Source of the DNA: a virus
Lineage: Duplodnaviria; Heunggongvirae; Uroviricota; Caudoviricetes
Length of the DNA: 47,471 nt
Strand: one strand, 5' to 3'
Virus record (IMG/VR): IMGVR_UViG_2541047941_000003
Span: 1-47,471 of that record
How positions within the stretch are numbered: the first letter of the stretch is position 1; each line of letters opens with the position of its first letter. Below are positions 7,365 through 19,086 of this stretch, piece after piece. The notes beneath the pieces were generated by a model. It did not search any database, had not been told where the DNA came from, and was given only the letters and a program-made list of their open reading frames with translations. The position numbers and the translations under genes were made by a program.

Positions 7365-7790
7365 TTATTCAACAGATGATGGGGGGGTCGGTGCTTTCTT
7401 AAAGATCGACCACTGAGAAATGTAGGTCAGCAACCTTGAGCTTAACTCGAGTTCTTTTTGTAATATTTCGTCATAACGTTTATTTGCTGCTTGCATGGTC
7501 GCATCACTAGCGTGATTGTCATCCATAATGATCTTTAGCCTTTTCTTTTCTCGGCTTGAGCATATTGTAAATAACAGACCTGTAAATGACATTCCACCAA
7601 AATCCTTTAACGTTTTGATTACAAAAAGAAGAATCAAAGACAGAAAAGGAACAGATCTGTAGGCCCAATCACGAAACTCACCGTCAGGAAAGAAGATAGG
7701 AATAGCATCTGTAGCATAACCACATATGAGGGAGACAATTAGAAAAGGTAGTCCATTTTTAGCTACATTTTTAACGTTATCGTTAGCCAT
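7365..7790 (-). CDS. Small membrane protein (~141 aa, 2-3 predicted TM helices, charged C-terminal tail), cassette gene C
   Basis: Hydrophobic stretches GLPFLIVSLICGYATDAIPIFF, VPFLSLILLFVIKTL; ATG overlaps stop of upstream gene (ATGGCTAA); AT-rich. Confidence 0.5.
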   Translation of the reverse strand: MANDNVKNVAKNGLPFLIVSLICGYATDAIPIFFPDGEFRDWAYRSVPFLSLILLFVIKTLKDFGGMSFTGLLFTICSSREKKRLKIIMDDNHASDATMQAANKRYDEILQKELELSSRLLTYISQWSIFKKAPTPPSSVE

Positions 7791-8166
7791 GATTTTTTCC
7801 CGAGAACGATTTCGAGTCAACATGTAACTTTTGTGTTTTGACTACATAATACGCAAATCCAATCTTAACTAACCAATAAGCTACTGGTATGAGTGCTGCG
7901 TAAAGAGGGATATAGTACATAACCTTACCTCCTGTTAACCACACTATAACACCTAGCATCACTATTAGCGCGACAGAAAATGCTTTCAGCCCAACACAGC
8001 TATCAGGATGTGAAACACTGTTCCTTAGCAACAATATCCTGGATTCATCAAGTGTGTAAGGAATATCGCCAACATGATTTTCGATTTTTGGGAAGGTCTC
8101 AAATACTTCAACCCGATCAATCGAAATAATTGAGCTTGATTGATGATCTAAGCAAACTGCAGCCAC
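7783..8166 (-). CDS. Small membrane protein (127 aa, 2 C-terminal TM helices), cassette gene B
   Basis: GTG start preceded by GAGGG; TM segments AFSVALIVMLGVIVWL and IPLYAALIPVAYWLVKIGFAYYVV; AT-rich. Confidence 0.45.
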   Translation of the reverse strand: MAAVCLDHQSSSIISIDRVEVFETFPKIENHVGDIPYTLDESRILLLRNSVSHPDSCVGLKAFSVALIVMLGVIVWLTGGKVMYYIPLYAALIPVAYWLVKIGFAYYVVKTQKLHVDSKSFSGKNHG

Positions 8167-8168
8167 TG

Positions 8169-8492
8169 TTATCCCTCTCGAACCTTTAGTGATACTCGGT
8201 TAGCAGCAAATGTGGCAATGAAACCACATTCTACACATATAACAGGGAATGCCCATATACCTCGGCCAGCTGAATGAGGTAGAGGAAGGGTAATTATTGC
8301 AGGATAGTCTTGACTATCTTCTCGTGGAGGAACTCCCCAAAGCGTATGCTTACAAAGCGGACAGGCCATCTCGCCATGTTTTTCTTCGAGGCGTTGAAAA
8401 TAATCTCGAAATTCTTGTCTTGATATTGATAGCGTCAATGCTGTTGTATTGACACTTTCCTGACTTTTTTCTTCTTCAACCTGTTCGCCCAT
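8169..8492 (-). CDS. Small zinc-ribbon protein (~107 aa), cassette gene A
   Basis: CPLC...CVEC motif pair; first gene downstream of cI in same orientation; AT-rich. Confidence 0.45.
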   Translation of the reverse strand: MGEQVEEEKSQESVNTTALTLSISRQEFRDYFQRLEEKHGEMACPLCKHTLWGVPPREDSQDYPAIITLPLPHSAGRGIWAFPVICVECGFIATFAANRVSLKVREG

Positions 8493-8603
8493 CTCAGCTC
8501 TCAATATAATGATAATTAACTGGTAAGTGAATTTTGCATATCGTTAAGATGTATCCCATTGGTACAGAAACATCTGAGGGGTAAGTAGCTTTTAACTACC
8601 GTG

Positions 8604-8999
8604 CTACTCACCATCCCCCTTAATCCGCCGTCCCATGTACTTGGCGTACAGTTCATCGAGTTCTTTCAACCGTAGAGATACGATCCGCAACATGTTCTGT
8701 TGTTCTTCTTCGTTTGGGAGTTGATTATAGAGTTCCAACAGTCTCCGTTCGTCGTGTCTCAAACCGTCCTTAGCATCCACGTCCTGACCTAGAACCCACT
8801 CAAGACTTACGCCTAGCGCATCGGCAAGTTTTATTGCTGAGCTTTTTCCTATCGCTCCTCTGACAAACCAGTTGTTGACTGATTGTGCGCTCACACCACA
8901 GATTCTCGCTATATCCGCTTTGGATATGCGCTTCTTCTCGATGATTTCATTTAACCGCCGAACCTGCGGGTTATCTGTTTGGTGTGTGTTTTTTCTCAT
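8604..8999 (-). CDS. cI: cI-type prophage repressor, HTH_XRE family, no LexA-like S24 peptidase domain
   Basis: 131 aa; HTH ISKADIARICGVSAQSVNNW; divergent from cro-like gene across operator palindromes. Confidence 0.8.
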   Translation of the reverse strand: MRKNTHQTDNPQVRRLNEIIEKKRISKADIARICGVSAQSVNNWFVRGAIGKSSAIKLADALGVSLEWVLGQDVDAKDGLRHDERRLLELYNQLPNEEEQQNMLRIVSLRLKELDELYAKYMGRRIKGDGE

Positions 9000-9032
9000 A
9001 TATCAAGATTCTAAACTAAAAGTTTATCGCCT

Positions 9033-9049
9033 CAACATTCATAATGTTG
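9033..9049. promoter_or_regulatory. OR operator site: perfect palindrome CAACATTcatAATGTTG
   Basis: Inverted repeat in cI-cro intergenic region. Confidence 0.6.
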
Positions 9050-9058
9050 ACTTGAACA

Positions 9059-9073
9059 TAAACATAATGTTTA
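9059..9073. promoter_or_regulatory. OR operator site: perfect palindrome TAAACATaATGTTTA
   Basis: Inverted repeat in cI-cro intergenic region, 10 nt from first site. Confidence 0.6.
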
Positions 9074-9102
9074 ATTTGGTTCGTTATTACTTGGAGCCAA
9101 AT

Positions 9103-9336
9103 ATGAAAGCACTTGATAAAGCAATATGCATCGTAGGGGGTGCAACCCGTTTAGCAGAAAAGCTCAATGTATCCCCAATGACGGTCAGTCACTGGCGTCA
9201 CCGTGACAATGGATTCGTACCGGCTAACCGTGTCATTCCTATTTTCAATGCTACAGGTGTAACTCCACATGAGTTACGCCCTGATTTGTACCTCAACCCT
9301 ACGGATGGATTACCGGCTCAGGAAGCGAGGGCATAA
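9103..9336 (+). CDS. cro: Cro/YdaS-like HTH regulator
   Basis: 77 aa; GGAG RBS 8 nt upstream; divergent from repressor; HTH-like GGATRLAEKLNVSPMTVSHW. Confidence 0.7.
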   Translation: MKALDKAICIVGGATRLAEKLNVSPMTVSHWRHRDNGFVPANRVIPIFNATGVTPHELRPDLYLNPTDGLPAQEARA

Positions 9337-9338
9337 CC

Positions 9339-9878
9339 ATGCAGTCACTATCACTTCATCAAAATAGCGGATATCAAACGGCTGCGATGATAAATCGCAA
9401 TCAACCTGTCTCGGTAGATAAACATGACCAGATCCGCGATGCCGTTCGTGCGTGGGCGGGTGTAGATGGTCAGGATGTCGTTTCTGCTCTGATCATCGAA
9501 GAGTACCAGGCTCAAGGGGGAGACGAGATCACTTTCCCTGATGACCTCAGCCGACAGCGTCAGAAGCTTTTCCGCTTTCTGGATAACCATTTCAACAGCG
9601 AACGGTACCGCGAAAACGTTCGCCAGCTGACTCCGGCAATCCTCGCTGTCCTGCCGATTGAATACCGCAATCGTCTGCTACCAGAAGACAACGTAATGGC
9701 TCGTCTGGCAAGGCTGGAGAAGGAAACCAGCGAAGCGAAGATTGCTGTCGCAATGGATGCGCCACGTCATCAGAAGCTGAAAGAGTTGAGCGAGGGGATC
9801 GTGGAGATGTATCGCGTTGACCCTGGGTTAACCGGTCCGTTGATGGAAATGGTGCAGATTATGCTGGGGGCTATATGA
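9339..9878 (+). CDS. YdaT-like / CII-like early regulatory protein (putative)
   Basis: 179 aa immediately after cro-like gene, the position YdaT or CII occupies in lambdoid prophages; weak family assignment. Confidence 0.4.
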   Translation: MQSLSLHQNSGYQTAAMINRNQPVSVDKHDQIRDAVRAWAGVDGQDVVSALIIEEYQAQGGDEITFPDDLSRQRQKLFRFLDNHFNSERYRENVRQLTPAILAVLPIEYRNRLLPEDNVMARLARLEKETSEAKIAVAMDAPRHQKLKELSEGIVEMYRVDPGLTGPLMEMVQIMLGAI

Positions 9879-13245: not shown

Positions 13246-13502
13246 TGGAACCTCAACTGGAATACGCCACGAAACGCATCGTCGAACTGGAAAACCTGCT
13301 GCTGGTGGATGTGACCGAAACCGTCTGGCCTGCTGAGGTGGGAATGGTATATAGCCAGATTGAAAGTGCCGGGGATCTCCCGGCGCATCACCAGCGCCGC
13401 CTGAAGCATCACATCAACCGTATGTGGCTGGAGAAAATGCCGGTACCAGCCATCGTAAACGCCGCCCAGTCACTGGCCACCGCTATGGAGAAATACGCGT
13501 GA
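13245..13502 (+). CDS. Hypothetical protein
   Basis: 85 aa ORF. Confidence 0.35.
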   Translation: MEPQLEYATKRIVELENLLLVDVTETVWPAEVGMVYSQIESAGDLPAHHQRRLKHHINRMWLEKMPVPAIVNAAQSLATAMEKYA

Positions 13503-15382
13503 GAGAAATCATCGTTGATAACTTTGCCGGCGGCGGCGGGGCGAGCACGGGCATTGAGCTGGCGATCGGTCGTAGTGTGGATATTGCGATTAACCACGAC
13601 CCGAACGCTGTTGCGATGCACACTACGAACCACCCGGATACACTGCACTACTGCGAATCGGTGTTTGATGTCGATCCCATCGTAGCGACCGCTGGCCGCC
13701 CGGTGGGGCTGGCATGGTTTTCCCCTGATTGCCGTCACTTCTCAAAGGCTAAAGGTTCAAAGCCGGTAGAGAAAGAGATTCGTGGTTTGGCGTGGATTGT
13801 CATTCGCTGGGCGCTGGCGGTACGTCCCCGTGTGATGATGCTGGAGAACGTTGAAGAGTTCCGCACCTGGGGGCCGCTTATCGAATCTGCTGATGGTGGG
13901 TTACGTCCAAATCCCCTGCGTACTGGTGAGACCTTCGAGGCTTTCTGCGGCATGCTATCCGGTGGTATTCCTGCCGGTCATCCGGCGCTGGCGGAGTGCT
14001 GCGAGTTCCTGGGTATTACTGCCGACGGCGAACTGGCGCAGCAACTGGTGGCCGGGCTGGGTTACGCTGTTGATCATCGTGAGCTGCGCGCCTGCGACTT
14101 TGGCGCACCGACCATCAGGAAGCGTTTCTTCATGGTAATGCGTTGCGATGGTATGCCGGTGACCTGGCCGGACCCGACCCACGGCGACCCGAAATCTCCA
14201 GCTGTGCAGAGTGGAAAGTTGGCGCCATGGCGTACAGCTGCGGAGTGTATCGACTGGACCATTCCGGCACCGTCGATATTCGACCGCAAAAAGCCACTGG
14301 CTGAAAATACGCTCAAACGCATCGCTCGTGGCATCCAGCGGTTTGTGATCGAGAGCGCGTCGCCGTTCATCGTCAAGTGCAACCACACGACGACCAAAGG
14401 GAAATACGACTGTTTCCGTGGGCAGGCGCTGAGAGAGCCTCTGCAGACCATTACGAAAACCCACGGCTACGCGTTAGCCGTTCCACACCTGACAAAGTTC
14501 CGTACTGGCGCAACCGGGCAGCCCGTTACCGAACCCGTCCCGACGGTAACCGCTGGCACATCAAAACGTCCGGGCGGGAATGGGCATGCTCTGGGTATTG
14601 TTGAGGCAGCCATTGCGCCGTTTGTTGGTCGACAGTTTGGTGCGAGTGTCGGCCACCGGGCAGACGAACCGAGCGCAACCATCACCGCTGGCGGTGGCGG
14701 TAAATCTCAACTTGTAACGCCTACGCTGATCCAGATGGGTTATGGCGAACGACCTGGACAAGAACCGCGTGTGCTACGACTGGATAACCCGCTGGGGACC
14801 GTTACTGCAGGTGGAAATAAATTCGCGACGGTGAGCGCGTTTCTGGCGAAACACTACGGCGGCAACTATACGGGGCCGGGTGTCAGTATGGATGAGCCTA
14901 TGCACTCGGTTACGACTGTCGATCACCATGCAGTAGTTGCCTCTCATCTGGTGAAACTGCGTGGAACATGCCGCGACGGTCAACCATCCAGTGATCCAAT
15001 GCCAACAGTGACGGCGGGTGGGCTGCACGTAGGGGAGGTGAAAACCACTCTTGCGGTCGATGAATACGACGAACATCGCGCGCAGCTGGCGTTGGAGTTC
15101 CTGCGTAAGTACTGCGGTGAGGATTGCGACGGGCTGGTAGATATTGACAGAATCACTTTTCGCATCGTTGATATCGGTATGCGGATGCTGCAACCGCACG
15201 AGCTATACCGCGCGCAGGGCTTCCCGGAGTGGTACATCATCGATCAGGACTATCGGGGGCAGAAGTACGCGAAGGACAAGCAGGTTGCGCGTTGTGGCAA
15301 CGCAGTTCCGCCGCCATTCGCCGAGGCACTGGTGAGGGCTAATTTACCGGAGCTTTGTCAGCAGAAAGAGATCGCAGCTTAA
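13499..15382 (+). CDS. DNA (cytosine-5)-methyltransferase, phage orphan type
   Basis: GTG start overlapping upstream stop; motifs FAGGGGAS (AdoMet), SPDCRHFSKAKG (PC-like catalytic), MLENVEEF (ENV), RAQGFPEWY (C-terminal). Confidence 0.8.
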   Translation: MREIIVDNFAGGGGASTGIELAIGRSVDIAINHDPNAVAMHTTNHPDTLHYCESVFDVDPIVATAGRPVGLAWFSPDCRHFSKAKGSKPVEKEIRGLAWIVIRWALAVRPRVMMLENVEEFRTWGPLIESADGGLRPNPLRTGETFEAFCGMLSGGIPAGHPALAECCEFLGITADGELAQQLVAGLGYAVDHRELRACDFGAPTIRKRFFMVMRCDGMPVTWPDPTHGDPKSPAVQSGKLAPWRTAAECIDWTIPAPSIFDRKKPLAENTLKRIARGIQRFVIESASPFIVKCNHTTTKGKYDCFRGQALREPLQTITKTHGYALAVPHLTKFRTGATGQPVTEPVPTVTAGTSKRPGGNGHALGIVEAAIAPFVGRQFGASVGHRADEPSATITAGGGGKSQLVTPTLIQMGYGERPGQEPRVLRLDNPLGTVTAGGNKFATVSAFLAKHYGGNYTGPGVSMDEPMHSVTTVDHHAVVASHLVKLRGTCRDGQPSSDPMPTVTAGGLHVGEVKTTLAVDEYDEHRAQLALEFLRKYCGEDCDGLVDIDRITFRIVDIGMRMLQPHELYRAQGFPEWYIIDQDYRGQKYAKDKQVARCGNAVPPPFAEALVRANLPELCQQKEIAA

Positions 15383-15481
15383 TGTCCGAGTTTCAGAACA
15401 TGGTGTAACAAATCCTGCTACTTCAATGACGTAGATTCAAACCTGATATAATTAGGCTCTTCACAACACGAGGAGCCTAAA

Positions 15482-15718
15482 ATGCACCATTACATGATCC
15501 CTATCAACGGAACTGTTCACCTGATCAAGACTGACTCTCTAATCCCTGAAGGGACTGAGTATAGCTTTGAAGGAGAAAGTCTAATCTGCGCTCATGCCAC
15601 TTTTAAATCTGGGACGTATGGCTTCCTGATACCAAAGGGAAATCAGTTGAATAGAGAGCATGCGTTCTGGCATGTAAGTGGAATTCACCCTAATCCCCTG
15701 GGAATGGATAAATCGTAA
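15482..15718 (+). CDS. Hypothetical protein encoded in AT-rich insertion at methyltransferase 3' end
   Basis: 78 aa ORF with AGGAG RBS; flanked by duplicated methyltransferase 3' ends. Confidence 0.4.
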   Translation: MHHYMIPINGTVHLIKTDSLIPEGTEYSFEGESLICAHATFKSGTYGFLIPKGNQLNREHAFWHVSGIHPNPLGMDKS

Positions 15719-15728
15719 TCCATAATAT

Positions 15729-15763
15729 GCATGCCATCGTCCTGAACATACGGTGGCATGCAT
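15729..15763. other. Perfect 10 bp inverted repeat (atgcatgcca ... tggcatgcat) hairpin
   Basis: Read directly; 15 nt loop; not followed by T-run. Confidence 0.4.
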
Positions 15764-15989
15764 CCGGCACTACAACAGAAACGTTAAAGTGCAAACAATA
15801 CAATTCGAGCAATATTCAACCTGTCACAGATGGCGAATACCACCGCCATTTCGTGCATTCTGTGGTTTCTATTACCCATTGCGTTAATGCTGTCCAATCA
15901 TCAGCTCGCTGAGGCGCTGGTTAGGGCTAACCTACAGGAGCTTTGTCAGCAGAAACAAATAGCGGCGTAATAAAACATCGCTAATTCAA

Positions 15990-16016
15990 CCCGCTACGGC
16001 GGGTTTTCTTTTTTTA
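15990..16016 (+). terminator. Intrinsic terminator (cccgc-tacg-gcggg + T-run)
   Basis: GC stem followed by ttttcttttttt. Confidence 0.7.
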
Positions 16017-16077
16017 CTACTGACAGAAAATTAACAATTTGTGCTCTTAAAACGTTGATCATTTCCGCGCATAGGTA

Positions 16078-16097
16078 TACTGTATAAAAACACAGTA
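16078..16097 (+). promoter_or_regulatory. LexA box (SOS box) TACTGTATAAAAACACAGTA overlapping promoter of dinI-like gene
   Basis: CTGT-N8-ACAG with AT-rich spacer matches consensus TACTGTATATATATACAGTA; TTGATC -35-like hexamer 17 bp upstream. Confidence 0.8.
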
Positions 16098-16115
16098 CAT
16101 GCAATGGGGGCCATT

Positions 16116-16349
16116 ATGAAAGTTGAATTAACCATTGATCGCATGAAAGAACTTCCTAAAGGCGCAGTACCAGCACTGGAGAAAGAACTGCTTAAGCGCC
16201 TGAATGATCACTATGACAATTGCAGGCTCACAATCCGCCGTGCCGGGGCCGATGGGTTAAGTGTTTTTGGTGGTGACAAGGACGATAAAAAGAAAATTGA
16301 ATCAATCCTCCAGGATACCTGGGAAAGCGCTGACGACTGGTTTTATTAG
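16116..16349 (+). CDS. dinI: DinI-like SOS protein
   Basis: 77 aa; resembles E. coli DinI (VELTIDR..., ESILQDTWESADDWF); LexA box upstream. Confidence 0.75.
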   Translation: MKVELTIDRMKELPKGAVPALEKELLKRLNDHYDNCRLTIRRAGADGLSVFGGDKDDKKKIESILQDTWESADDWFY

Positions 16350-16466
16350 AATTGCGCTTAAGGCTGGCGCGCATTTTTCAGAATACCGCAATTTGCGTAA
16401 CCCTCTGATGCTGCTGCCGACAATCTTTAATCGCGTCTGTTAGTCGCTCGAAGGGAGAACATAAAT

Positions 16467-16715
16467 GTGAGTGATTCAGCTTTGCAAACGTCAGAAGACA
16501 ACTGGTATGACATTGTAAGAAGGTCTGACGGCTGCGTGGTGTTTAGCTTTCCTTCATCGGGCAGGCATCTAATTTATCGCGTCAATGGCATGGTTTCTAT
16601 GCGGCCTTTGCTGGATGATGAAGAGGTCTTTACTCCTAATGGTTTTATGCAGTTTATTCACCGTCTCGGCTACCGGGTAACCCCACCTTCTGATAATATG
16701 AAATCAACGGTCTGA
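16467..16715 (+). CDS. Hypothetical protein
   Basis: 82 aa ORF, probable GTG start. Confidence 0.3.
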   Translation: MSDSALQTSEDNWYDIVRRSDGCVVFSFPSSGRHLIYRVNGMVSMRPLLDDEEVFTPNGFMQFIHRLGYRVTPPSDNMKSTV

Positions 16716-16749
16716 ACAACCGTAACCTACTGCGCCACGGAGAGAAACC

Positions 16750-17349
16750 ATGGCGCACGAACTACAACTCATCAAGCATTCCTCAGGAATCCTGATCCCC
16801 GCTACGCCGGAGACCAGTGATTTACTGCAATCAAAAATCAAACTCGGCTCCGTACTGGTGGCTGAGTTCCGGCAGGTACGCAACCCGGCCTTTCACCGTC
16901 GTTTCTTCGCGTTACTCAATCTCGGTTTCGAATACTGGGAACCCACCGGCGGGGCAATCTCCTCCAACGAACGCAAGCTGGTAACCGGCTATGCCAAGTT
17001 CCTTGCCTCATTCGCGGGAAGTGAAGCAGCACTCCTGGATGCTGCTGAGCAATATCTGGACCGCATCGCCGATAAGCGCGCCGGTAGTATCAGCATCTGC
17101 AAATCCTATGACGCATATCGTGCATGGGTGATCATCGAGTCTGGCCACTACGACGCCATACAGCTTCCCGACGGCACCCTTCGCAAACACCCCCGCAGCA
17201 TTGCCTTTGCCAACATGGACGAAACCGAGTTCCAGCAGCTGTACAAAGCCGCGCTCGATGTTCTGTGGCGCTGGGTATTGTCCCGGGCATTCAAGGACCA
17301 GCGTGAAGCGGAAAACGCCGCATCGCAGCTCATGAGCTTTGCGGGGTGA
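16750..17349 (+). CDS. DUF1367-like nin-region protein
   Basis: 199 aa; position upstream of ninG typical for this family. Confidence 0.45.
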   Translation: MAHELQLIKHSSGILIPATPETSDLLQSKIKLGSVLVAEFRQVRNPAFHRRFFALLNLGFEYWEPTGGAISSNERKLVTGYAKFLASFAGSEAALLDAAEQYLDRIADKRAGSISICKSYDAYRAWVIIESGHYDAIQLPDGTLRKHPRSIAFANMDETEFQQLYKAALDVLWRWVLSRAFKDQREAENAASQLMSFAG

Positions 17350-18299: not shown

Positions 18300-18989
18300 A
18301 TGAATACTCAATTTCTCGAATACGTGCGCCAGCAGTTGATGGTGGCCACCGCCGATTTAAGTGGTGCGACGAAAGGGCAGTTGATGGCGTGGCTTGAAAA
18401 CGCGCAGTTCGATACGGGAACGTTTAAACGTAAAAAGCCTCGAGTGCTGGATGAAGTGACCGGGGAAATGATTACGCTGGATAACCCGCCAATACCGGGC
18501 AAGCAGTCGCATACCAAGGGTTCGCATATTCCCCTGGTGCAGCCGGTTGAATACTCCAGCGCATCGTGGCGCCGCGCACTGATGTCACTCGAAGAACACC
18601 AGAAAGCGTGGCTGCTATGGAACTATAGCGAGAACGTGCGCTGGTGCTATCAGGTGGAAATCACTCAATGGGCGTGGGCAGAGTTCCGGGAGCAGCTCGG
18701 CGCGAAGAAGGTGGCCGGCAAAACGATGGAGCGCCTGAAGAAGCTTGTCTGGCTCGCGGCTCAGGACGTGAAAGCAGAGCTGGCAGGGCGTGAGACGTAC
18801 GAATATCAGGCGCTGGCGTCGCTGGTTGGCGTAACGCCAAAAAACTGGTCAGAGACCTTTACTGACCGCTGGGTTGAGATGCGCAGCATCTTCCTGCGAC
18901 TGGATAGCGGGGCTTTATTGCAGGTTACGCGATCACGTTCACAACAAAAGGCGACAAATTTAGACTCAAGTCTTGCAAAACTGGATTGA
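18300..18989 (+). CDS. Late-gene antiterminator Q-like protein
   Basis: 229 aa, position between ninG and lysis cassette, followed by tR'-like terminators. Confidence 0.55.
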   Translation: MNTQFLEYVRQQLMVATADLSGATKGQLMAWLENAQFDTGTFKRKKPRVLDEVTGEMITLDNPPIPGKQSHTKGSHIPLVQPVEYSSASWRRALMSLEEHQKAWLLWNYSENVRWCYQVEITQWAWAEFREQLGAKKVAGKTMERLKKLVWLAAQDVKAELAGRETYEYQALASLVGVTPKNWSETFTDRWVEMRSIFLRLDSGALLQVTRSRSQQKATNLDSSLAKLD

Positions 18990-19054
18990 AACGCATATAT
19001 TTCATGTAAATCTGATATCGTCGCCATAGCTTCGTAGGTCGACAAAGAATTAAG

Positions 19055-19086
19055 AGCCTCGCCATCGTGCGGGGCTTTTTTATTTG
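19055..19086 (+). terminator. tR'-like intrinsic terminator (copy 1)
   Basis: GC-rich imperfect hairpin followed by ttttttatttgcg. Confidence 0.5.

Follow-up and report, generated by a model that had tools for sequence, protein, structure and literature searches.

A predicted Gifsy-1-type repressor–antirepressor circuit in a lambdoid Escherichia coli prophage

Antirepressors of other prophages

Induction of the Salmonella Gifsy prophages runs through antirepressors under LexA control. For GfoA, binding to the repressor, displacement of the repressor from DNA, dependence on LexA and a role both sufficient and necessary for induction have all been reported for the Salmonella orthologues (PMC3121763). 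In all Gifsy prophages the LexA box is preceded by terminator-like palindromes (Lemire 2011, PMC3121763). Gifsy-2 carries the pair GtgR (GftR) and GftA, and GtgR is reportedly insensitive to GfoA. The cryptic prophage Qin of E. coli K-12 encodes the repressor DicA together with Rem, a tested DicA antirepressor that causes a 165-fold derepression of a DicA-controlled promoter; LexA control of rem is not reported in that study (PMC10448788). In coliphage 186, a P2-like phage (Peduoviridae), the non-cleavable CI is bound by the LexA-repressed antirepressor Tum, a single protein of 146 aa in which the antirepressor is fused to a DinI-like module.

Here we compare these systems with a lambdoid E. 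coli prophage contained in a stretch of 47,471 nucleotides (IMG/VR record IMGVR_UViG_2541047941_000003; hereafter the window), the features of which are collected in Table 1. It is very probable that the window carries an induction circuit of the Gifsy-1 type, built from two separated modules, namely a repressor predicted to be non-cleavable and a LexA-controlled antirepressor. The mechanism is already proven for Salmonella Gifsy-1, and the annotation is solid.

Table 1 Features of the immunity region and of the two LexA-controlled operons of the window
Feature	Position	Strand	Details
Prophage repressor, GfoR orthologue	8604..8999	-	ATG start, 131 aa; HTH, no S24
Candidate operator palindromes (three)	9012..9073		inverted repeats in repressor/cro intergenic region
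Candidate operator 1	9012-9026		inverted repeat TAAACTaaaAGTTTA
Candidate operator 2	9032-9050		inverted repeat TCAACATTcatAATGTTGA
Candidate operator 3	9059-9073		inverted repeat TAAACATaATGTTTA
Putative rightward early promoter	9047..9075	+	TTGACT, 17 nt, TTTAAT, read from sequence
Cro-like lytic repressor, YdaS family HTH	9103..9336	+	Pfam YdaS_toxin, E=7.6e-16; phrog_35
CII-like protein, YdaT family	9339..9878	+	Pfam YdaT_toxin, E=1.9e-25; phrog_163, CII-like
Rho-independent terminator	15988..16005	+	hairpin aligned with the same one in Gifsy-2
Putative SOS promoter	16055..16081	+	-35 TTGATC, 15-nt spacer, -10 TATACT
LexA box 1	16078..16097		TACTGTATAAAAACACAGTA, 38 nt upstream of dinI ATG
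DinI homologue, first SOS operon gene	16116..16349	+	77 aa; Pfam DinI, E=3.8e-26
Conserved dinI-antirepressor leader	16350..16466	+	terminator-like hairpin 16353-16371
Predicted antirepressor, GfoA orthologue	16467..16715	+	82 aa, GTG start, second box 1 operon gene
DUF1367/irsA homologue, third operon gene	16750..17349	+	phrog_319, NinB/Orf-like
LexA box 2	45636..45655		TACTGTATATAAAAACAGTG, 19 nt upstream of small gene pair
79-aa protein, first gene of second SOS operon	45674..45913	+	phrog_3893
UmuD'-like protein	45913..46200	+	95 aa; phrog_3469; NCBIfam HumD, E=7e-11

The repressor and its immunity region

In Pfam the repressor matches HTH families alone (HTH_3 at residues 18-69, E=2.9e-8; Phage_CI_repr, E=1.6e-5), and Peptidase_S24 (PF00717) is absent from them. 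The best 120 homologues listed are likewise proteins of 112-135 aa with HTH domains only and no PF00717. The AlphaFold2 model (pLDDT 86) consists of helices throughout, a five-helix HTH being followed by C-terminal helices at residues 82-92 and 97-127, and the beta-rich S24 fold is not present in it. These data assign about residues 11-70 to an N-terminal HTH domain and about residues 76-131 to a two-helix domain at the C terminus, and they bear out an earlier note on this DNA, which had described a 131-aa HTH-only repressor without an S24 domain. Structural matches of the model were restricted to the repressors of 434, P22 (c2) and lambda (cI), in each case to the N-terminal domain. With the CI proteins of lambda, P22 and phi80 the repressor shares this N-terminal fold (rmsd ~2-3 Å to the N-terminal domains of P22 c2 and 434) and a divergent repressor/cro arrangement with multiple, here candidate, operators, but unlike them it has no S24 domain and ends in two helices of ~55 aa. 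The features of lambda CI/LexA-type self-cleavage, that is S24, the Ser/Lys dyad and an Ala-Gly or Cys-Gly site in the linker, were not found. Since the protein comprises only an HTH and a short helical C-terminal domain, RecA-stimulated autocleavage should not be possible.

Over 127 aa the repressor shares 74% of its residues with a Gifsy-1 protein of equal length (P0152), which we identified as GfoR because its termini, MKEKTHQIN... and ...EKYMKGRIRTRED, agree with the ends that the published gfoR primers encode. The alignments with GtgR (26% identity, E=5e-9) and DicA (30% identity, E=7e-9) both include a C-terminal LLxLFxxLP motif, and the C-terminal region LLxL(F/Y)xQLPxxEQ is common to the repressor, GfoR, GtgR and DicA. 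In its sequence the repressor conforms to the GfoR/GfhR/GtgR/DicA type, with a length in the range of ~125-155 aa, a single Cro/CI-type HTH and no S24 module. As in that type, its gene runs divergently from the Cro-like gene in an immunity region of lambdoid type that contains operator repeats, and the candidate operators overlap with the putative rightward early promoter. The early gene order (RecE/RecT, YdaE, repressor, YdaS-like cro, O, P) is similar to that of Gifsy-1 of strain ATCC14028. Unlike Gifsy-1, the prophage resides in E. coli, has no parA after the repressor, contains a YdaT-type gene where Gifsy-1 has a CII-type gene (PF05269), carries an additional ~4.5 kb of genes, one of them for a cytosine methyltransferase, in the P-dinI interval, and has a different late region with baseplate-type tail genes.

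Two LexA-controlled operons

The pattern CTGT-N8-ACAG occurs twice in the window, compared to 0.53 expected occurrences, and the 20-mer TACTGTATATATATACAGTA, with up to three mismatches allowed, matched only at boxes 1 and 2 and not once in 100 shuffles. Exactly two LexA boxes are therefore present, as had been claimed. Related loci have the box at positions -35 to -40 relative to dinI in 17 of 18 cases, and the same applies to all 19 further genomes that have dinI.

Box 1 belongs to an operon with the Gifsy layout, in which a terminator, the LexA box, dinI, a leader, a small ORF with a non-AUG start and DUF1367/irsA follow each other. This series aligns with Gifsy-2, where the layout is identical, and fits the description of Lemire 2011. 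The terminator shields the SOS operon from early transcription upstream. The -10 element of the putative SOS promoter overlaps LexA box 1; the promoter was assigned from its alignment with TTGAAT-15-TATACT of Gifsy-2, while a consensus scan of 15400-17000, which needs a spacer of 16-18 nt, found no sigma-70 promoter. The DinI homologue shows 66% identity to its Gifsy-2 counterpart, and the DUF1367/irsA homologue occupies the position of STM1020. By our own alignment count the leader is ~93% identical to that of Gifsy-2, far above the flanking coding sequence. An Rfam search with the dinI-gfoA leader returned no RNA family, and its predicted fold had no added stability compared to shuffled sequences (z=0.39), so that we do not claim a structured RNA element.

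The second gene of this operon, an ORF of 82 aa that the earlier note did not list, is 92.7% identical to the GfoA copy of SEN34, which is in turn identical in sequence to the ORF that separates dinI from DUF1367 in a GfoR-carrying Salmonella Gifsy-1 (L017). The published primers for cloning and tagging of gfoA match at 16468-16490 and 16661-16695 with two mismatches each and with 0 chance matches. Besides its similarity to GfoA, the ORF has the non-AUG start of the GfoA/GfhA type (GTG here, TTG in Gifsy-1), lies between dinI and irsA/DUF1367, and is part of a transcription unit in which a terminator is followed by a LexA box overlapping the promoter, located ~38 nt upstream of dinI as in Gifsy-1. 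RefSeq labels it 'hypothetical protein' here, in ~1% of complete E. coli genomes (52/5,426) and in phage mEp237.

The ORF matches phrog_340 (E=4e-20), which also holds Rem of Qin at a comparable level (~1e-20), although in hhalign the narrow GfoA-type alignment failed to match Rem taken as a single sequence. GftA of Gifsy-2 is assigned to another group (PHROG 4847) and has no significant BLASTP similarity to the ORF; a profile-profile comparison of both families was weak but collinear over 52 columns (P=7e-4). The decisive orthology link, as judged from sequence, is that to GfoA and not that to GftA. Towards the N-terminal antirepressor half of Tum no homology was detected by hhalign (P=0.18), and unlike the Tum fusion the window has two genes, in reverse order, in a prophage that is lambdoid and not P2-like. 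Tum is an analogue of the window antirepressor and no member of its family. NCBIfam, Pfam and PADLOC hold no model for the ORF or for the 79-aa protein of the second operon. PDB searches with the ORF by sequence and by fold, the latter with a structure model of moderate confidence (pLDDT 70), found no relatives, and PDB sequence searches with the repressor and the 79-aa protein gave nothing useful. Genes of the Ant, KilAC or Bro type (Pfam, PHROG) were absent from the ORFs of the immunity region, the P-dinI interval, the box 1 operon and the right end. We conclude that the 82-aa ORF is the predicted antirepressor and assign the prophage, on sequence grounds, to the GfoR/GfoA (DicA/Rem) repressor-antirepressor family.

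The earlier note had looked for the antirepressor among the two other LexA-controlled candidates, the DinI gene and the right-end genes at 45674-46200, and in both cases it was probably wrong. The right-end genes form a separate SOS operon of two overlapping genes, and it is improbable that the antirepressor, or an additional one with a redundant or trans-acting role, is encoded there. Their good LexA box, and the fact that small trans-acting antirepressors such as FsoA of Fels-1 can sit anywhere in a prophage, would speak for such a role, but the products have no similarity to any known antirepressor and the 95-aa protein is UmuD'/HumD-like. The phage records with the operon (95-aa gene, n=114; 79-aa gene, n=45) and those with a GfoR-type repressor (n=24) form, in the rows listed, largely different sets. 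Moreover, phage HK225 has a homologue of the 79-aa gene with a LexA box of its own, and its 257-aa CI contains Peptidase_S24. Since HK225 pairs the gene with an S24 repressor, it is not tied to the short repressor type, and it probably stands outside the immunity switch. For these reasons the right-end operon was rejected as the source of the antirepressor.

The 95-aa protein resembles UmuD' and P1 HumD in that it begins at the position equivalent to Gly25 of UmuD, and would thus be made already 'processed', as well as in its GFPSPAxDYVEQR arm and in the LexA box upstream of its gene. It differs from them in length (95 aa versus 115 aa in UmuD' and 129 positions in the HumD model), in the replacement of the catalytic Ser60 by Val and in having the 79-aa protein as a partner. 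The alignment with UmuD does not extend beyond the 43 N-terminal residues, the protein scores 42.1 bits against the HumD model, which has a cut-off of 120, and the full S24 fold with Ser60/Lys97 was not found. From its sequence the protein is predicted to be catalytically dead. It is conceivable, though rather doubtful, that the operon at 45636-46200 is no inert cargo but a portable SOS feedback module consisting of a dead UmuD' mimic and its 79-aa partner. If so, RecA filaments, Pol V or LexA cleavage would be the targets of both proteins, and the operon would tune the duration of LexA cleavage and hence the amount of GfoA-type antirepressor. It would then, as a second phage-encoded layer beside DinI, determine the threshold at which antirepressor-dependent prophages are induced.

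Proposed induction circuit and its distribution

In the circuit that we propose, the GfoR orthologue would bind to the palindromic operators between its own gene and cro, while 7.5 kb rightward, insulated by the terminator, a LexA-repressed promoter would drive dinI, the 82-aa antirepressor and DUF1367/irsA. Upon DNA damage, active RecA would promote self-cleavage of LexA and the box 1 operon would be transcribed. The accumulating antirepressor would form a stoichiometric complex with the repressor, in Gifsy one of dimer with dimer, and strip it from the operators, so that the early promoters PL and PR could fire. The repressor would be neither cleaved nor degraded, and for this reason the switch would in principle be reversible. 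The weak GTG/TTG start together with the leader hairpin may hold the basal level of antirepressor low. The circuit function is assigned by analogy with the Salmonella orthologues, at identities of 74% for the repressor and 93% for the antirepressor. The previous proposal of induction without self-cleavage, through a LexA-controlled antirepressor as in Gifsy, is strongly supported by the GfoR/GfoA orthology.

Alternatively, the circuit might be a relic of a defective prophage, its LexA-controlled genes serving only as host SOS accessory genes. O and Q are annotated with internal stops in the near-identical E. coli prophage EC17CM13, and deletions at related loci join recT to cro or to P. In the window, however, O, P and Q as well as the ORFs for lysis and morphogenesis read as intact, and the isolated phage mEp237 has a 98.8% identical antirepressor allele and, in tandem, two genes for repressors of this family. 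We give this alternative little weight.

The linkage of the Gifsy-1-type pair is found beyond the window. Among 50,697 phage records, 15 of the 17 with an antirepressor homologue also have a repressor homologue (our own tally), including an Aeromonas phage in which each of the two proteins is ~35% identical. Of 28 species-representative genomes that encode a GfoA relative, 27, among them eight without dinI, have a LexA box ahead of the gene. In 17 of the 28 the 10 kb upstream contain a repressor of the GfoR family; most of the other 11 show no marker, or nothing but the end of P or O, where the flank ends. An Enterobacter prophage (L026) couples the LexA-dinI-GfoA-like module to a 210-aa CI bearing an S24-type GDSM motif, as read by eye, and the linkage to the short repressor is therefore not absolute.

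The eight genomes that lack dinI but have the LexA box and the gfoA homologue also bear on the possibility that the DinI homologue itself is the antirepressor, which we regard as very unlikely. Its gene directly follows LexA box 1, and the protein aligns (32% identity, E=9e-15) with the DinI-like C-terminal half of Tum. DinI, however, belongs to a family that binds RecA filaments, and in Gifsy-1 and Gifsy-3 non-polar deletions of dinI had no significant effect on induction, while the minimal inducing segment in Gifsy was mapped to the dinI-irsA interval (PMC3121763). In PSP3, a relative of 186, tum is split in two and the antirepressor activity resides in the gene that is not DinI-like (Lemire 2011, PMC3121763). 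DinI is dispensable for Gifsy induction and was rejected as the antirepressor. We likewise rejected, as very unlikely, a direct inactivation of the repressor by RecA-dependent cleavage or SOS-induced proteolysis with no role of an antirepressor, the default lambda paradigm, since the Cys-Gly dipeptide at residues 34-35 is situated within the HTH, the catalytic Ser/Lys module and the beta-rich C-terminal fold are missing, and the orthologues GfoR and GtgR stay uncleaved and at a constant level during induction with mitomycin C (PMC3121763).

In E. coli one antirepressor allele is found with at least four different HTH types of repressor, the C-terminal domains of which are at least 73% identical, whereas identity in the HTH domain drops to 44%. 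Antirepressor identity correlates with the identity of both the N- and the C-terminal domain (rho 0.74 and 0.78); as both values are high, they do not show which domain is contacted, and we infer from the conservation pattern alone that the conserved C-terminal helical domain may serve as a docking or dimerisation surface.

For annotation, these results mean that the induction gene of this prophage is most probably the 82-aa ORF, and neither DinI nor the right-end SOS operon. If the GfoR/GfoA-type circuit operates as proposed, induction would depend on LexA and should be blocked in lexA(Ind-) backgrounds, and unlike lambda-type induction it would in principle be reversible. The Gifsy-1 circuit recurs with little change in E. 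coli, Citrobacter, Klebsiella and Enterobacter, and extends at ~35% identity to an Aeromonas phage. With one antirepressor allele distributed over several heteroimmune repressors that share their C-terminal domain, SOS cross-induction of co-resident prophages is predicted, as has been demonstrated for co-resident heteroimmune prophages in Salmonella.

Immunity repressor and its genetic setting

The repressor had been described in the earlier note as a 131-aa protein with an HTH but no S24 peptidase domain, and this holds on all counts. The ORF check agreed, Pfam returned HTH families only (HTH_3 at residues 18-69, E=2.9e-8; Phage_CI_repr, E=1.6e-5) without a Peptidase_S24 match, and the best 120 of 707 homologues from a database of 5.8 billion proteins are 112-135 aa long with HTH domains only. 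The AlphaFold2 model (mean pLDDT 86) is all helix, with five HTH helices followed by helices 82-92 and 97-127, and in structure comparison it matches the N-terminal domains of the 434, P22 c2 and lambda repressors. Judged from sequence and model, the protein has no part predicted to be capable of autocleavage.

The repressor ORF is divergent from a Cro-like gene, behind which come a CII-like YdaT gene and O and P genes of lambda type; this setting identifies the ORF as immunity repressor of a lambdoid prophage. Three palindromes at 9012-9026, 9032-9050 and 9059-9073 are candidate operators and overlap a putative promoter (TTGACT-17-TTTAAT). The window is 99-100% identical to E. coli chromosomes, and in one matching strain the prophage adjoins kch. 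A near-identical prophage in E. coli EC17CM13 has O and Q annotated with internal stops and is without a 4.5-kb block that separates P from dinI in the window. The lineage occurs in intact and in decaying forms. The block itself, missing in relatives, holds a 652-aa ORF and several unknown genes (13424-15382, 15830-15970). By the annotation of the relative CUWW10, the large ORF looks like a DNA cytosine methyltransferase; the 46-aa ORF at 15830-15970 repeats its C-terminus (...AEALVRANLQELCQQKQIAA) and looks like a scar of module exchange.

Directly downstream of the repressor gene, three minus-strand genes (7365-8504; 111, 127 and 152 aa) had no Pfam match above threshold and no PADLOC match. 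Their position is like that of lambda rexAB, and by this analogy they may be accessory or exclusion genes expressed in the lysogen.

Features of the repressor region and of the two LexA-boxed operons
Feature	Position	Remarks
Immunity repressor ORF	8604-8999	minus strand; ATG start, 131 aa
Cro-like YdaS-family gene	9103-9336	divergent from repressor gene
Terminator	15988-16005	upstream of LexA box 1
LexA box 1	16078-16097	overlaps putative TATACT -10 element
dinI	16116-16349	DinI family, Pfam E=3.8e-26
dinI-to-small-ORF leader	16350-16466	117 nt
Small ORF	16467-16715	GTG start, 82 aa
DUF1367 gene	16750-17349	followed by NinG and Q genes
LexA box 2	45636-45655
Box 2 operon	45674-46200	two overlapping genes behind LexA box 2

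The LexA box 1 operon encodes a GfoA orthologue

Both SOS boxes of the earlier note were recovered: allowing at most 3 mismatches, the 20-mer LexA consensus matches the window only at boxes 1 and 2 (0 matches in 100 shuffles), and the core pattern is also matched. The Gifsy induction locus consists of a terminator-like palindrome, a LexA box adjoining a dinI homologue, a small ORF and an irsA homologue; the small ORF has a non-canonical start codon and its product is the antirepressor GftA, GfoA or GfhA (Lemire 2011, PMC3121763). When aligned with Gifsy-2, the terminator, box, dinI and leader of the window are in register. The proposal of an antirepressor under LexA control was sound in kind, but dinI, one of the two candidates named, does not fit, as it belongs to the DinI family and non-polar deletions of dinI or irsA did not significantly change induction in Gifsy (PMC3121763). 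The wrong genes had been pointed at because the real antirepressor gene starts with GTG.

Gifsy-2 GftA had no BLASTP similarity to the small ORF product, and profile-profile comparison of the two gave a weak signal (P=7e-4, 52 collinear columns). Because GfoA and GfhA are only distant relatives of GftA (PMC3121763), GfoA was chosen as comparison. Published primers define the ends of gfoA (5', ATG-AGTAATTCAGCTTTGCAAAAG; 3', ...TCGTCTCGGCTACCGGGTAACACCACCTTCTGATA) and match the start (16468-16490) and near end (16661-16695) of the window ORF with two mismatches each, where none is expected by chance. A genome encoding P0152, the Salmonella protein taken as GfoR, has a Gifsy-1-type prophage that adjoins rseC, carries parA after the repressor gene in agreement with the published description (PMC3121763), and contains the published Gifsy-1 primer sequence upstream of dinI. 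Between dinI and DUF1367 this prophage has an ORF with a TTG start (LSNSALQK...PPSDNMKSTA), identical in sequence to the copy of phage SEN34, which in turn shares 92.7% identity with the window ORF. The window ORF falls into phrog_340 (E=4e-20), as does Rem of the Qin prophage (E=1.6e-20), which was discovered by PSI-BLAST from GfoA and derepressed a DicA-controlled promoter 165-fold (PMC10448788).

The repressor agrees with this assignment. It is 74% identical over 127 aa to P0152, also 131 aa long, whose termini (MKEKTHQIN... and ...EKYMKGRIRTRED) are those encoded by the gfoR primers. More distant matches are GtgR of Gifsy-2 (26% identity, E=5e-9) and DicA of Qin (30%, E=7e-9), and a C-terminal LLxL(F/Y)xQLPxxEQ region is common to all three. 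The window therefore encodes repressor and antirepressor of the Gifsy-1 type.

The leader is about 93% identical to Gifsy-2 (counted on the alignment), far above the flanking coding sequence, although the antirepressor genes 3' of it cannot be aligned. It contains a terminator-like hairpin (16353-16371) with a T-run and a tiny ORF (ATG 16411 to TAG 16446). In Klebsiella and PHB10 the leader sequence is divergent; reading by eye, a short hairpin is still possible at the same place in Klebsiella. Neither an Rfam match nor a fold better than that of shuffled sequences gave a sign of structured RNA. Possible roles of the leader are those of attenuator, H-NS site or recombination joint.

Further downstream, an Rfam isrJ match (19005-19078; 68.7 bits, gathering score 37) lies immediately behind the Q antiterminator gene, which ends at 18989, at the expected place of a lambdoid late-promoter (PR') leader.

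Conservation of the repressor-antirepressor pairing

Among 50,697 phage records, antirepressor homologues are present in 17 and repressor homologues in 24; counted from the two tables, 15 of those 17 have both, including SPN3UB and an Aeromonas phage with ~35% identity for both proteins. All inspected loci share one layout, with short repressor, cro and cII-type gene, and further right dinI, small ORF and DUF1367. In 17 of 18 loci dinI is preceded by a LexA box at a distance of 35-39 nt.

An independent set comprised 28 species-representative genomes with a GfoA relative. In the 19 with dinI the box is at -36 to -40 without exception, while eight Enterobacteriaceae genomes (L038-L042, L045-L047) have no dinI but still a LexA box, placed 171-350 nt ahead of the antirepressor gene. 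The antirepressor ORF, and not dinI, is thus the conserved cargo of the SOS promoter. Seventeen of the 28 encode a GfoR-family repressor at most 10 kb upstream. The remaining 11 comprise four with only the P or O end at the flank edge, four without any marker (two on short contigs), two deletion remnants and one Enterobacter quasihormaechei locus (L026). The latter has the LexA-dinI-GfoA-like module (antirepressor 69% identical) and a 210-aa CI (1047-1679), in whose sequence reading by eye shows an S24-type GDSM motif. It resembles Fels-1, which carries FsoA. The L026 antirepressor would then be redundant or would target other prophages in trans, which is what FsoA does.

Of 5,426 complete E. 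coli genomes, 52 carry the dinI-gfoA module, and the repressors paired with it have at least four different HTH types. In GfoA-type phages identity is 73% or higher for the repressor C-terminal domain (mean 83%) and as low as 44% for the HTH domain (mean 64%). This is in line with the published inactivation of GfoR as well as of the heteroimmune GfhR by GfoA, and suggests the helical C-domain as a docking or dimerisation surface, with the reservation that correlations with the antirepressor do not separate it from the HTH.

Tandem repressor paralogues, two each, occur in mEp237 (gp38/gp39, L003 4155-5034), SEN34 (L007 898-1710) and E. coli AR_0118 (L005 5728-6523). The cro-proximal copy has a different HTH and the second copy that of the window (N-terminal domain 71-77% identical); the second copy could confer another specificity of immunity or serve as antirepressor decoy.

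The LexA box 2 operon and the induction switch

The other candidate of the earlier note, the operon behind LexA box 2, is also unlikely to encode the antirepressor. Its first gene encodes a 79-aa protein (phrog_3893, function not assigned) and its second a 95-aa 'UmuD-like' protein (phrog_3469), which scores far under the HumD family cut-off. Since the alignment of the latter with UmuD begins exactly at Gly25, it mimics processed UmuD'; the catalytic Ser60 is replaced by Val. Homologues occur in 114 (95-aa gene) and 45 (79-aa gene) phage records, among those listed largely distinct from phages with GfoR-type repressors. HK225 has the 79-aa gene behind its own LexA box, located between this gene and a divergent dinI, together with a 257-aa CI carrying a Peptidase_S24 domain. 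This makes the operon a portable accessory module under SOS control, for which a connection to RecA or Pol V is more likely than a link to the window repressor; action in trans is highly improbable.

A Gifsy-1-type GfoR/GfoA switch very probably explains induction here. The window holds, as read from its sequence, a putatively non-cleavable HTH repressor and a terminator-insulated, LexA-boxed operon for DinI, the GfoA orthologue and DUF1367. In the orthologous systems induction depends on LexA cleavage; once DNA is damaged, antirepressor builds up, enters a stable complex, probably A2B2, with the repressor and releases it from DNA, and the repressor level stays constant (PMC3121763). Transferred to the window, cleavage of LexA would let the antirepressor accumulate, bind the repressor, presumably at its C-terminal domain, and release it from DNA. 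The non-AUG start, found in 7/9 aligned versions with the other two not assessable, and the leader hairpin may keep basal antirepressor low.

The system is that of Gifsy-1, here in an E. coli prophage. Homologues of gfoR/gtgR had already been noted in most E. coli genomes (PMC3121763), and later work in K-12 tested the DicA/Rem pair (PMC10448788). Tum of phage 186 is only an analogue: its C-terminal half is matched by the window DinI, but its antirepressor part has no detectable homology to that of the window. The mechanism is not new; the outcome is a correct and useful annotation.
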